A stretch of DNA of 64,000 nt from Escherichia coli (GTDB lineage Bacteria; Pseudomonadota; Gammaproteobacteria; Enterobacterales; Enterobacteriaceae), in the NCBI RefSeq assembly GCF_001677475.2, contig NZ_CP015229.1. One strand, 5' to 3'. The position numbers were made by a program, and so were the translations under genes. This document shows, one piece after another, positions 6,410-48,120 of this stretch (position 1 is its first letter; the number at the start of each line of letters is the position of its first letter). The notes below the pieces were generated by a model, which was not told the origin of the DNA, ran no database searches, and saw nothing but the letters and a program-made list of their open reading frames with translations.

Positions 6410-6610
6410 TGTAATATCCTTTCTCTTTCTTAGACAGTACCTTACGGCACTGGTGTTAATACCCGATCTTCTGCGCATCCTCGCGACTAATGACAACCCT
6501 AACCCAGCTCTATGTGGGTAAAGCCTCTCATTAGCCGCGCGAACCTCTGCAACGGAAGATCATTCATAGCAACAATACATTAGTTTCCAGTGAATTGCTG
6601 CCGTCAGCTT

Positions 6611-6640
6611 GAAAAAAGGGGCCACTCAGGCCCCCTTTTC
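6611..6640 (-). terminator. rpsO intrinsic terminator (hairpin also usable from the plus strand)
   Basis: ggggccactcaggcccc hairpin flanked by A-run on plus and T-run on minus, 16 nt downstream of the rpsO stop. Confidence 0.7.
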
Positions 6641-6655
6641 TGAAACTCGCAAGAA

Positions 6656-7021
<366 letters not shown>

Positions 7022-8468: not shown

Positions 8469-8505
8469 ATTTCAGGTGGAAGGGCTGTTCACGTTGGCCT
8501 GATAA

Positions 8506-8569
8506 GACGCGCCAGCGTCGCATCAGGCAATCCATGCCGGATGCGGCGTAAACGCCTTATCCCGCATGG
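8506..8569. repeat. REP/BIME-type palindromic units in the infB-rbfA spacer
   Basis: gcctgataagacgcgccagcgtcgcatcaggc and gccggatgcggcgtaaacgccttatcccgcatgg resemble E. coli REP consensus. Confidence 0.6.
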
Positions 8570-13263: not shown

Positions 13264-13329
13264 TAAAAAAAGGGCCTAAAGCCCAGTTATTCTGTAGTCA
13301 GATAACAAAAAACCCCGATAAATCGGGGC
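13264..13329 (-). terminator. Two tandem hairpin/U-tract terminators downstream of metY
   Basis: Minus strand: gggctttaggccc + ttttttt (13264..13283) and ccccgatttatcgggg + tttttt (13305..13329). Confidence 0.6.
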
Positions 13330-13453
13330 TTTATATAACTGAACCCTATAACCGCAACTGCGGTCTGGAGCACTTTCCAGAAGGATTTTTTCAAATCCCA
13401 CTACGAAGGCCGAAGTCTTCACAGTATATTTGAAAAAGGACTCTAAGGGAAAG

Positions 13454-13530
<77 letters not shown>

Positions 13531-17312: not shown

Positions 17313-17399
17313 TGGTACCGAGGACGGGACTTGAACCCGTAAGCCCTATTGGGCACTACCACCTCAAGGTAGCGTGTCTACCAATTCCACCACCTCGGC
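17313..17399 (-). tRNA. leuU: tRNA-Leu (GAG anticodon, 87 nt)
   Basis: Reverse complement reads GCCGAGGTGGTGGAATTGGTAGACACGCTACCTTGAGGTGGTAGTGCCCAATAGGGCTTACGGGTTCAAGTCCCGTCCTCGGTACCA; long variable arm; immediately downstream of secG. Confidence 0.95.
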
Positions 17400-24048: not shown

Positions 24049-24092
24049 GCAAAAAAATACCGACCCGGGTACAAGTCCCAGGTCAGCTACAA
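24049..24092 (-). ncRNA. graL: greA leader terminated by an intrinsic terminator (GraL-like short leader RNA)
   Basis: Minus strand GACCUGGG-ACUUGUA-CCCGGGUC hairpin followed by GGUAUUUUUUU, about 40 nt downstream of the predicted promoter and upstream of the greA start codon; 5' end is inferred. Confidence 0.45.
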
Positions 24093-24099
24093 TTCACAT

Positions 24100-24127
24100 T
24101 TTGATAGTCATTTTACCCTGAAGTTCC
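24100..24127 (-). promoter_or_regulatory. Sigma-E-type promoter (GGAACTT-N16-TCAAA) overlapping a sigma-70 -10 (TAAAAT) upstream of greA
   Basis: Minus strand reads GGAACTT cagggtaaaatgacta TCAAA; a close match to the sigma-E consensus with 16-nt spacing. Confidence 0.55.
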
Positions 24128-24203
24128 CGAAGGGTCATCGTTTACTTTATAGGGCGTTGCGCCGTAGTATGACGGCTCGATTCCAGGTTGTTAGCGCGAG
24201 ATT

Positions 24204-44179: not shown

Positions 44180-44904
44180 TCCAGCTGGTGTTGTTGCATA
44201 AACGACTCACCGCCTAACTGATACATCTGCCGTAAAATCCACGCCTGACGGCTACGCACGTAGCCCGATGGCGCGGAGACTTTGAAACGAAGTGGATTAG
44301 GTAATACAGCTGCCAGTAATGCAGCTTCCGACCGGGTAAGTTTGCTCGCGGGTTTGTGGAAATAACGTTGTGCCGCAGCTTCGACGCCAAACACACCGTC
44401 GCCAAATTCGGCGATATTCAGGTAAACCGTCAGGATACGCTTTTTGCTCCAGACCGTTTCTATCCCCAGCGTTAATCCGGCTTCTAGCCCTTTTCGAACC
44501 CAGCTACGCCCATCCCATAAAAAGAGATTTTTGGCCGTCTGCTGAGAAATCGTTGATGCACCGCGAATACGGTTTTCATTGCGCTCGTTGTGCGCCAGGG
44601 CTTTCTCAATGGAAGCGACATCAAAGCCCCAGTGCTCAGGAAATTTCTGATCTTCTGCGGCAATCACCGCCAGTCCCATCCACGGCGAGATTTGATCCAT
44701 ACTGACCCAGTCAGAATGTGCCACGTAACGAAAATTGCCATGCAGCCAGGCGCTGACCTGTCGCTCGACCATTACCGCTGAGAAAGGAACAGGCGCAACG
44801 CTAAACAACGCAATGCCCCCGCCCCAGAAAACGGCGAGGACAACCATTAACCGCAGAAGAAAACGGCGAACGAAACTAAACACCGTTAAGCGGCTTTTAC
44901 TCAT
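44176..44904 (-). CDS. mtgA: Monofunctional peptidoglycan glycosyltransferase MtgA (242 aa)
   Basis: Translation [73 protein letters not shown]... Confidence 0.95.
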
Positions 44905-45554
44905 TCAGCCAGAACCAGCACGCGGGAAACCAGCTTATCAATGCCGTTCGCCGCTTCCGCAATGTTCTGTGCCAACATATAAGCTGGTGTAGTGACAATC
45001 TTATTGTCTTCATCAACCACGATATCATCGACAGGACATGGCACATGCTCCGCGCCCATCTCTTCCAGCACTTCTGCGGTATCGATATCAGTACCGATGG
45101 TCAAACGCAGCGGGAAATCGAAAATTTTCGGCAGCATCGCCGGGGCAATACACACAAAACCAAGCGGTTTTCCGGCCTGATGCATCGCTTGTGCCAGCGC
45201 CTTTAATTCACGGTCAACGGTGCATTCGCTACCAAGACTGGCAAAATTGCTTAAATTCTTCGCCGCGCCAAACCCCCCCGGCACAATCAACGCATCCAGT
45301 TCAGCGGCATCGGCCTGGGCCAGAGGACGGATTTCACCGCGCGTTATTCGTGCCGCTTCAATCAGCACATTGCGCGTTTCCGTCATCGCTTCGCCAGTTA
45401 AATGGTTGATAACATCAACCTGCTGCTTATCCGGTGCAAAGCAGACCGCCTGCGCACCGCTGCGTGAAATAGCTAACAACGTCAACACCGCTTCATGAAT
45501 TTCAGAACCGTCATAGACGCCGCATCCGCTCAGAATTACGCCAATTTTCTTCAT
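44901..45554 (-). CDS. elbB: DJ-1/PfpI-family glyoxalase ElbB/YhbL (217 aa)
   Basis: Translation [64 protein letters not shown]...; overlaps the mtgA start by 4 nt. Confidence 0.92.
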
Positions 45555-45671
45555 TGTGATCATCCTTTCGCAATTGACTGAAACACATTAATTTTTTTAA
45601 TAAAAATGCTACGCATCACACATTTAACTGATTCATGTAACAAATCATTTAAGTTTTGCTATCTTAACTGC

Positions 45672-45792
45672 GTGCGGCCTGAAAAACAGTGCTGTGCCCT
45701 TGTAACTCATCATAATAATTTACGGCGCAGCCAAGATTTCCCTGGTGTTGGCGCAGTATTCGCGCACCCCGGTCTAGCCGGGGTCATTTTTT
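45672..45792 (+). ncRNA. arcZ: ArcZ (SraH/RyhA) Hfq-dependent small RNA, about 121 nt
   Basis: GTGCGGCCTGAAAAACAGTGCTGTGCCCTTGTAACTCATCATAATAATTTACGGCGCAGCCAAGATTTCCCTGGTGTTGGCGCAGTATTCGCGCACCCCGGTCTAGCCGGGGTCATTTTTT matches my recollection of ArcZ; 3' terminator hairpin plus U-run overlaps the arcB stop codon. Confidence 0.85.
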
Positions 45793-48120
45793 AGTGGCTT
45801 TTGCCACCCACGCTTTCAGTACTTCTACGTCGTGACGCCACTCTTCTTTCATCTCTTCAATCCATTCACCGACGTTATCTTCCCAGGCGGGAAGGTCAGG
45901 AGACTGAATTTGCTGACCCAGCTGTTGCAGATGGCGTAACCCCACTGACCCCGCCGCACCTTTAATTTTATGTCCTTCCTCAACAATGCCTTTTTTATCC
46001 TGCGCCGTCAGATTCGACTCCAGCACGCTGACATAGCCCGGCATCATCTTCTCAAACACCGCTAACCCGTCGGTGATCAGCTTCGGTCCTACAAGTTCGA
46101 GATACTGTTCCAGCATGGGAATATCGAGCAATGCTTCTGATTTACTGTTCTCTTCTGTCGTCACCGTACTCTCCTCATCATCCTGGGTATCCCAGAATTT
46201 CTTGATCATCGCGGTTAGCGCCGGAACAGAAAGCGGCTTACTCAGCACATCATCCATTCCAGCATTGAGGTACTCTTGTTTGTCTTTCAACACGTTAGCG
46301 GTTAAGGCCACCAGCGGCGGTAAATCCTCGCGCGGATAACGCTTCGTCAGTTCACGAGAGATATCCAGCCCGGTCATATCTGGCAACTGAATATCCAGCA
46401 ACACCAGGTCGTATTCGCCCGGTTTAAACATTTCCAGCGCCGCCTTGCCGGTCATGGCGACATCAACGCTGTTACCTAATTTTTCCAGCACAGAGCGTGC
46501 GACAATCACGTTCAGTTCAATATCTTCCACCAGCAGCACATTCAGCGCCGGTAAAGGCATATCGTCTTCATCAAACGCATCATCAACCTCTTCTGCTACC
46601 GACGGTGCGTGGATCGTCAACGTAAAGGTTGAACCTTTGCCCTGTTCGCTGGTAACCGTAATATCGCCGCCCATATTTTTCGCCAGACGACGAGAAACGG
46701 CCAGACCAATACCGGTGCCGGTGGCAGGTTTACCGCCATGACTGTCTTTCACTTGGTAATACATGGCGAAGATTTTATCCAGCTCATCTTGCGGAATGCC
46801 GATACCAGAGTCTTCCACTTCAAAATGCAGCATATCGCCTTCATCGTAGCGCACGCGCACGGTAACCTGGCCTTGCTGGGTGAATTTGACGGCGTTACTG
46901 ATGAGATTCCACAGGATCTGCCGTAAACGCGTCCCGTCGGTAATGACCTGATGCGGTAATGGCAGCGTCGGCTCCAGATTAAAGCGCAATCCTTTCTGTT
47001 GCGCCTGCAATGCGGAGAGATTTTCCAGATCGGCAAGGAAGCTGGTGAAATCAACCGGCTGATTATCAAGCTGGACCTTGCGCCGTTCCATCTTATCCAT
47101 GTCGATAATATCGTTGAAGATATTCCCCAGCGTGACGGCCGAAACATGGATGGTTTTGAGATATTTTTCCTGCTCGGCGGTGAGTTCGGTATCCAGTAGG
47201 ATGCGGCTCAGGCCGACGATACCGTTCAGCGGTGTACGCAATTCGTGACTGATGGTGGAGATAAACGTCGTTTTGTCGCGGCTGGCCCGTTCAAGCGCAT
47301 CCTGATACCGCTTACGCTCGGTAATGTCGCGACCAAAGCCCATCAAACCGTGACGTTTACCCACGCGGTCGTAGTACGGCACTTTACGAATTTCAAAGCA
47401 GGCTTTGCGTCCGTCGGGATAATCCAGCCACTGCTCATAGGTCAGTGACACATTATGACGGAACACTTTTTCATCGGTTTCAATGACTTTCGCAGCGGCT
47501 TCCGGTGAGTAAACATCAGCAGGTTTCAGATGAACCAGTTGTTTTTCGCTTTTTCCGGTCAGCAGCTCCATCGCGCGGTTACAGCCGGAAAACTCTTTAT
47601 CTTCGTTACGATAAAAAACCAGGTCGGGTGAAGCATCAAGGAAGGAACGTAAGAATGAGGATTGCTGCTCGAGCTGAATTTGTGTCTCTTCGCGCTCTTT
47701 GATTTCAATTTTCAGTTGGCCGAAGGTTTCCTGCAGTTCTGCTTCCGCTTTTTCACGAACGGCAATTTCCTGATTTAGCTGGGCAATATTATCTTTTAAC
47801 TGAACGTTGAGGCTCAAATCGCGCTCGCGCATCTCCTCCAGTTTTTGCACCAGCCGTGACAGACGTTGTCGTGACTCCTCCAGTTGCTCGACGACCACCG
47901 ATAGAAAGTAGACCGCCCACGGCGTAATCAGCAAACCAAAGAAGATAGAACGAATAACATCAATGCTTTCGACCTGACCATGCAGCACCATGGTTACCGC
48001 CATTTGTACCACAATGGCAAGAACGACGAGGGCCAGCGCCAGCAACATTGAGAAGCGCACCAGACCTAACTTCATCATCAGGTCAACATAATACTGCGCC
48101 AGCAGACGAATTTGCTTCAT
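45784..48120 (-). CDS. arcB: Aerobic respiration control sensor kinase ArcB (778 aa)
   Basis: Translation MKQIRLLAQYYVDLMMKLGLVRFSMLLALALVVLAIVVQMAVTMVLHGQVESIDVIRSIFFGLL... with PAS, HisKA (SHELRTPLN), receiver and Hpt domains. Confidence 0.97.
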   Translation of the reverse strand: MKQIRLLAQYYVDLMMKLGLVRFSMLLALALVVLAIVVQMAVTMVLHGQVESIDVIRSIFFGLLITPWAVYFLSVVVEQLEESRQRLSRLVQKLEEMRERDLSLNVQLKDNIAQLNQEIAVREKAEAELQETFGQLKIEIKEREETQIQLEQQSSFLRSFLDASPDLVFYRNEDKEFSGCNRAMELLTGKSEKQLVHLKPADVYSPEAAAKVIETDEKVFRHNVSLTYEQWLDYPDGRKACFEIRKVPYYDRVGKRHGLMGFGRDITERKRYQDALERASRDKTTFISTISHELRTPLNGIVGLSRILLDTELTAEQEKYLKTIHVSAVTLGNIFNDIIDMDKMERRKVQLDNQPVDFTSFLADLENLSALQAQQKGLRFNLEPTLPLPHQVITDGTRLRQILWNLISNAVKFTQQGQVTVRVRYDEGDMLHFEVEDSGIGIPQDELDKIFAMYYQVKDSHGGKPATGTGIGLAVSRRLAKNMGGDITVTSEQGKGSTFTLTIHAPSVAEEVDDAFDEDDMPLPALNVLLVEDIELNVIVARSVLEKLGNSVDVAMTGKAALEMFKPGEYDLVLLDIQLPDMTGLDISRELTKRYPREDLPPLVALTANVLKDKQEYLNAGMDDVLSKPLSVPALTAMIKKFWDTQDDEESTVTTEENSKSEALLDIPMLEQYLELVGPKLITDGLAVFEKMMPGYVSVLESNLTAQDKKGIVEEGHKIKGAAGSVGLRHLQQLGQQIQSPDLPAWEDNVGEWIEEMKEEWRHDVEVLKAWVAKATKK

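Follow-up and report, generated by a model that had tools for sequence, protein, structure and literature searches.

The window analysed here, a stretch of 64,000 nucleotides from an Escherichia coli chromosome (NZ_CP015229.1), carries at 45672..45792 of its plus strand the gene of the small RNA ArcZ (arcZ, also named sraH or ryhA), in the extent of its full-length, 121-nt primary transcript. The segment starts with GTGCGGCCTGAAAAACAGTG, ends with GGGGTCATTTTTT and is identical at 121/121 nt to arcZ of MG1655 (b4450, NC_000913.3 3350577..3350697), which is annotated in the K-12 reference as a 121-nt ncRNA with arcB (3350689..3353025) on the opposite strand. A search of the whole window with Rfam covariance models matched the ArcZ family, RF00081, at 45672..45779 (+) with 120.8 bits against a gathering threshold of 66 (E-value 4.1e-27), and the match spans the full model (positions 1-106 of 106). 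As this model ends within the 3' arm of the ArcZ terminator, the terminator was checked separately. The E-value of the covariance model and the exact match to the reference gene together settle the identity, and nothing was found that speaks against it; the locus is arcZ of E. coli, a gene already described and annotated in the reference genome. An initial annotation of the same DNA had placed ArcZ at these positions of the plus strand and named a covariance-model search as the check, to be refuted by the lack of a match; the search bears the identification out, and every coordinate that it gave is correct. Its remark that a six-frame track of open reading frames misses ArcZ is true and, for a non-coding RNA, trivial.

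The neighbouring genes are those expected around arcZ. On the minus strand, the open reading frame at 45784..48120 encodes ArcB (778 aa), the hybrid sensor kinase of the ArcAB two-component system, with a match to the equivalog model NF008302 at 1483 bits (cut-off 838), and arcZ is thus convergent to arcB, as had been proposed. On the other side lies elbB (44901..45554, minus strand; NF008747 at 356 bits, coordinates carried over from the K-12 annotation). Its transcription diverges from that of arcZ; it shares the strand of arcB, lies downstream of that gene and is followed by mtgA. The order elbB-arcZ-arcB is the same as in the K-12 annotation. The window differs from K-12 by 45 substitutions over the 4 kb surrounding the locus and by 0 in the 121 nt of arcZ. 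Within arcB, 30 SNPs were counted in 2328 nt (45793..48120), all of them synonymous, leaving ArcB identical at 778/778 aa, and the spacer between elbB and arcZ holds a single difference, at 45609, 63 nt upstream of the arcZ start.

The 121 nt of arcZ are likewise present in 5416 of 5426 complete E. coli genomes, with at least 99% identity in 5395. Ten of the 5426 genomes have no match, one genome has matches at two places, and one match is on a plasmid. RefSeq PGAP records of E. coli such as NZ_CP023820.1 (L002) list arcB and elbB at this place and have no arcZ feature; an annotation-based scan of such records would miss the gene. Besides ArcZ, Rfam matches above gathering in the window were the SraG sRNA, the rpsO (S15) leader, naRNA4, the rimP leader, two tRNAs and the greA leader (6468..6639 (+), 6869..6983 (-), 8496..8566 (-), 13265..13365 (-), 13457..13530 (-), 17316..17399 (-) and 24052..24173 (-)), none of which is surprising in this region of the E. 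coli chromosome.

Upstream of the RNA, the promoter block from -56 to -1 (45616..45671, plus strand) is almost invariant when 22 promoters from at least seven genera, including Escherichia, Salmonella, Citrobacter, Enterobacter, Leclercia, Lelliottia and Silvania, are aligned with MAFFT, and is far better conserved than the 5' half of the RNA itself. The promoter was placed from the annotated start and this phylogenetic footprint. A putative extended -10 element (TGc followed by TATCTT, 45657..45665) ends 7 nt before the annotated 5' end, and a -35-like hexamer, GTAACA (45637..45642, 4/6 to TTGACA), lies 17 bp upstream of the -10; both are invariant among the aligned promoters. A sigma-70 consensus scan reported no promoter at arcZ at its threshold of 9/12, since this -35/-10 pair scores 8/12. 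Position 45654 (-18) is T in the window and in K-12 and A in all 20 other aligned promoters, among them two further genomes labelled E. coli (L049 and L072). Reviews state that phosphorylated ArcA binds the arcZ promoter (PMC11331407), and with this the ChIP-seq study of Park et al. 2013 disagrees, as it found no ArcA site upstream of arcZ. By-eye matches to an ArcA box in 45616..45671 were weak (about 10/15, against a provisional consensus), and this candidate was dropped.

The two halves of ArcZ differ strongly in their conservation. In an alignment of 39 sequences, one per genus, the 5' half varies freely and with indels, and an invariant block begins at positions 55-56 of the first sequence, which correspond to 45737-45738 and to nt 66 of ArcZ; position 55 (45737) is itself nearly invariant. 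This boundary between genera coincides with the published RNase E site. In the window, the site GA|UUU (45735..45739), which fits the RN|WUU motif, predicts a cut at 45736/45737, between nt 65 and 66 of ArcZ, and such a cut would leave exactly 56 nt up to 45792. The seed CCCUGGUGUUGGCGCA (45740..45755) follows immediately 3' of GA|UUU. These positions agree with what has been described for ArcZ of E. coli, where 121-nt and 56-nt forms occur, pairing with targets such as rpoS, flhDC, tpx, sdaC and mutS is by the 56-nt fragment only, and the sequence CCCUGGUGUUGGCGCA directly after the RNase E site is required for unique cleavage (PMC11331407). Passages of the same review that refer to Chao et al. 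2017 attribute the 56-nt 3' fragment to an Hfq-guided RNase E cut at RN|WUU. The processed, Hfq-bound active RNA would therefore correspond to 45737..45792, an extent suggested by conservation and a function known from the literature.

The 3' end of ArcZ is formed by a Rho-independent terminator with the stem-loop ACCCCGG UCUAG CCGGGGU at 45766..45784 and a U-tract at 45787..45792. A terminator scan of 45300..46100 reported one site, on the plus strand, with its stem at 45766..45784 (8 pairs, 6 of them G-C, and a 3-nt loop) and the tail CATTTTTT; folding of the 121-nt RNA returned the same hairpin followed by an unpaired tail (minimum free energy -42.3 kcal/mol, z = -2.7). One terminator-like pattern in 800 bp against 0.7 expected is not significant when taken alone. 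What makes the terminator convincing is rather its conservation with compensatory base changes across genera: in the alignment of 39 genera, two pairs of its stem show compensatory changes from GC to AU on both sides in 6/39 and GU intermediates in 5/39. The RNAalifold consensus of these genera consists of a 7-bp terminator stem and the internal hairpin GCGC-AGUAUUC-GCGC (45751..45765, plus strand; also part of the Rfam consensus structure), and nothing else. The internal hairpin is invariant because the loci had been selected by that very sequence, and it gives no covariation information; covariation was read from the terminator stem, the variable 5' stem-loop being not alignable in MAFFT.

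Between the terminator stem and the U-tract lies the stop codon of arcB. The plus-strand letters of 45784..45786 are TCA and thus TGA on the minus strand, T45784 being also the last base of the stem, so that the terminator of ArcZ covers the arcB stop just as the initial annotation had described. The U-tract is complementary to the final two codons of arcB, AAA AAA (Lys-Lys): 45784..45792 reads TCATTTTTT on the plus strand and AAA AAA TGA on the minus strand, where ArcB ends in KATKK. The 3' end of arcZ and the coding sequence of arcB hence overlap on opposite strands by 9 bp (45784..45792), the same overlap as in K-12 (arcB from 3350689, arcZ to 3350697).

This arrangement extends far beyond E. 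coli. An exact-match scan of species representatives (one genome per species) with the 27-nt core CCTGGTGTTGGCGCAGTATTCGCGCAC (45741..45767) found at least 120 loci. Among the matches listed, core-exact loci include Escherichia, Salmonella, Citrobacter, Enterobacter, Klebsiella/Raoultella, Yersinia and Rahnella, and also Erwinia, Pantoea, Photorhabdus, Xenorhabdus, Proteus, Providencia and Morganella. The listing is not exhaustive and the loci were chosen through the conservation of this core; the bases flanking the core, which lie outside the search pattern, are likewise invariant. Enough downstream sequence for placing the arcB stop was available in 111 sources, namely the window and 110 other Enterobacterales species, and true arcB stops were located by tblastn with the ArcB C-terminus followed by codon-wise extension. 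Among the matches listed, all 111 have a convergent, adjacent ArcB homologue, and in all 111 the core is followed by a G+C-rich hairpin, the triplet T(C/T)A and a T-run of 5-9. In 95 of these 111 listed sources the arcB stop (TGA or TAA) stands directly after the stem and ArcB ends in Lys-Lys, with an overlap of 9 bp in 13, 10 bp in 39 and 11 bp in 43 of the listed matches. The overlap shrinks to just 0-2 bp in 7/111 and is replaced by a gap of 4-58 bp in 9/111 (several Pantoea, Mixta and Chimaeribacter), again among the matches listed. Both the 95 and the 9 listed loci agree with the description of an overlap of usually about ten bases that is absent in Pectobacterium carotovorum (PMC11331407). 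As the coding overlap is missing in 9/111 sampled species and in P. carotovorum, it cannot be indispensable to the ArcZ family.

The T(C/T)A triplet between stem and T-run was kept in 111/111 of the listed matches, including the 16 in which it is not the arcB stop (L013, L016, L031, L034, L038, L042, L051, L053, L060, L062, L066, L073, L074, L075, L085 and L102). Because it is retained in 16 sources without a stop there, a role as stop codon cannot account for its retention, which may be due to phylogenetic inertia, or to a need for the triplet at the ArcZ 3' end. In one species, Kluyvera genomosp. 3 (L091), the arcB frame is broken by a stop about 60 codons before its end; either a pseudogene or an error in sequencing could underlie this. 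Of 12 distant loci with exact core, terminator and convergent arcB, 7 had no RF00081 match at the gathering threshold (L018, L021, L019, L085, L017, L013 and L062, from Proteus, Photorhabdus, Erwinia, Morganella, Xenorhabdus, Mixta and Chimaeribacter). The divergent 5' half seems to push their score below 66 bits, and Rfam-based annotation would thus undercall ArcZ outside the Enterobacteriaceae.

The literature describes ArcZ and arcB as negatively coupled. Statements in PMC11331407 that cite Mandin & Gottesman 2010 have ArcZ repressing arcB, and speculate that the arcB mRNA is an antisense RNA that destabilises ArcZ; a passage of PMC10948607, citing the same study, describes the two transcripts as regulating each other negatively. 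In the sections of reviews that refer to this work, ArcZ is presented as a cis-acting 3'-end antisense RNA by a mechanism that is still speculative. The claim of coupling made here stands on three secondary sources that all cite Mandin & Gottesman 2010. The initial annotation had called the arrangement one that is known to couple the expression of ArcZ and arcB; this agrees with the literature (PMC11331407), in which the mechanism of the cis coupling is called speculative.

Caution also applies to the idea that the convergent transcripts share their 3' ends. The overlap of 9 bp between ArcZ and the arcB coding sequence is firm, and shared ends would be a step beyond it, as no U-tract follows the hairpin on the minus strand. 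Beyond the arcB stop, the minus strand contains the terminator hairpin and then another one, antisense to the ArcZ core, and a U-run is lacking; in 45300..46100 the scan reported no terminator on this strand. An alternative minus-strand terminator from the antisense of ArcZ stem-loop 1 and a U5 run (45682..45686) was rejected, its A/U-run being not conserved in Enterobacter, Leclercia and Salmonella. A literature search for mapped 3' ends of arcB and ArcZ (Term-seq, bidirectional terminator) returned nothing relevant. Judging from the sequence, transcription of arcB plausibly continues antisense through arcZ towards elbB on the same strand. The mRNA of arcB must be complementary to the 3' end of ArcZ over at least 9 nt, as the terminator spans the last arcB codons, and it is probably complementary over much more, since the hairpin that follows the stop on the minus strand lacks a U-tract. 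Read-through of this kind would be compatible with RNA-RNA pairing as well as with transcriptional interference.

From these elements a feedback switch can be proposed. According to the literature, arcZ is transcribed from a sigma-70-type promoter under aerobic conditions and in stationary phase as a 121-nt RNA, which is bound by Hfq and cut by RNase E at GA|UUU to release the 56-nt 3' fragment as the active regulator; this fragment pairs in trans with targets such as rpoS, which it activates, and flhDC, tpx, sdaC and mutS, which it represses. The convergent, cis-antisense geometry may contribute to a mutual repression in which ArcZ lowers arcB, and arcB transcription or mRNA lowers ArcZ, a step that the literature treats as speculative. 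ArcAB-dependent repression of arcZ at low oxygen would add to this cis effect, and the combination could act as a feedback switch linking redox sensing to RpoS. As a whole, arcZ together with this proposed switch with arcB is, with high confidence, the best explanation of the locus.

A more specific version of the cis step deserves mention. The terminal Lys-Lys-stop of ArcB is the complement of the UCA or UUA and the U-tract of ArcZ, and the overlap might be a selected dual-coding element and no mere packing, with antisense read-through from arcB serving as the actual means by which ArcB represses ArcZ in cis; this is put forward tentatively, and is judged unlikely to hold. If dual coding were true, the lineages that lost the overlap (some Pantoea, Mixta, Chimaeribacter) would be natural experiments with a weakened cis feedback in which the triplet U(C/U)A is kept. 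If repression by read-through were true, it could help to explain the missing ArcA ChIP-seq site at arcZ.

Other explanations of the overlap have to be weighed against a switch with an antisense component. Perhaps the coupling in cis is real and operates through transcriptional interference instead of RNA-RNA pairing, with polymerase from arcB reading into arcZ and its promoter and causing collision or occlusion, and the reverse. Reviews indeed word the effect as arcB 'transcription' repressing ArcZ (PMC11331407). The minus strand within 45300..46100 also offers no intrinsic terminator signal for arcB, and beyond the stop a polymerase would pass two hairpins without a U-run and the antisense of arcZ before it meets the arcZ promoter about 120 bp away. 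Transcription of arcB is expected to be weak compared with that of an abundant sRNA, which counts against interference, and reviews favour the antisense RNA model. Interference is given clearly less than an even chance. The overlap may instead be simple compact packing of genes, the feedback operating wholly in trans through ArcAB at the arcZ promoter and ArcZ on other mRNAs. The 9 bp shared with the coding sequence would fit this view, as they sit in the structured terminator and U-tail of ArcZ and are poorly available for pairing, as would the exact ArcZ core that is kept in P. carotovorum and in the 9/111 sampled species, among the matches listed, without a coding overlap, and the description of the antisense mechanism as speculative (PMC11331407). 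Packing alone sits less easily with a convergent, adjacent arcB in 111/111 and a stop that abuts the stem in 95/111 of the matches listed, from Enterobacteriaceae to Morganellaceae and Yersiniaceae, or with the mutual repression of the transcripts reported in the review passages that cite Mandin & Gottesman 2010; moreover, without a U-tract on the minus strand, transcription of arcB likely runs antisense through arcZ. Packing as the whole explanation is considered unlikely.

Two further readings carry still less weight. The hairpin at 45766..45784 could be a bidirectional intrinsic terminator for both genes, in which case the transcripts would overlap by its length only. In favour of this is a single G+C-rich hairpin situated exactly between the two convergent genes and preceded, on the minus strand, by an A-run that is complementary to the U-tract of ArcZ; bidirectional terminators likewise have one hairpin between convergent units, the A-run of one strand being the U-tract of the other. 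The ArcZ hairpin differs from these in having a U-tract on the arcZ strand only: on the minus strand the sequence next to it is GCGCGAAUACUGCGCC, which lacks a U-run, and the site reported by the scan is on the plus strand alone. Nor can a U-tract evolve 3' of the hairpin on the minus strand, because the sequence there is the invariant core of ArcZ. The hairpin is thus not a canonical bidirectional terminator, and such a function appears improbable. Finally, an ATG-initiated open reading frame of 62 codons (45606..45794, plus strand) spans the arcZ promoter and gene and could encode a small protein instead of, or besides, the ncRNA. Its start lies 66 nt upstream of the ArcZ 5' end, within the promoter; E. 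albertii and E. whittamii have lost the start codon, the frame is interrupted by stops in Salmonella, Citrobacter and Raoultella, and the 5' half of ArcZ carries indels between genera. The frame is not conserved and was rejected as a gene, a coding function being extremely improbable.

The proposed feedback switch between ArcZ and arcB remains the preferred reading. ArcZ ranks among the most thoroughly studied sRNAs of enterobacteria, and descriptions of its overlap with arcB go back to 2001-2010, so that the result changes little; it does illustrate that a non-coding gene such as arcZ is recognisable to the exact base from raw sequence. Modest refinements are the placement of the stop in 95/111 sources, the dual coding of Lys-Lys and U-tract, the lineages that lost the overlap (all among the matches listed) and the missing U-tract on the minus strand. 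A further small addition is that RF00081 at its gathering score misses ArcZ in 7/12 distant loci.

Among known systems, the closest is ArcZ of K-12 itself, with which the locus shares 121/121 nt, the full covariance-model match, the elbB-arcZ-arcB synteny, the terminator, the 9-bp overlap, the RN|WUU site and the seed; there is no difference in the RNA, while the host strain of the window is not K-12. MicL, which is named beside ArcZ in PMC11331407, is similar in that it loses a variable 5' part, the stable active species being made of a conserved 3' seed and the terminator. It differs in being cut from the transcript of a coding region, whereas ArcZ is intergenic and has its own promoter. The conservation profile of ArcZ shows the same boundary between a variable 5' and a conserved 3' part as RNase E-processed Hfq sRNAs. 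With regard to the overlap, the comparison is with cis-encoded antisense sRNAs of the GadY/gadX type, whose gene is convergent with a regulator gene and overlaps its 3' end, the RNAs being complementary and having mutual effects on stability. ArcZ shares this geometry, with arcB as the regulator gene. GadY acts chiefly on its cis partner and stabilises it, whereas ArcZ is mainly a trans-acting Hfq sRNA with a seed outside the 9 bp of coding overlap, and is reported to affect arcB negatively.
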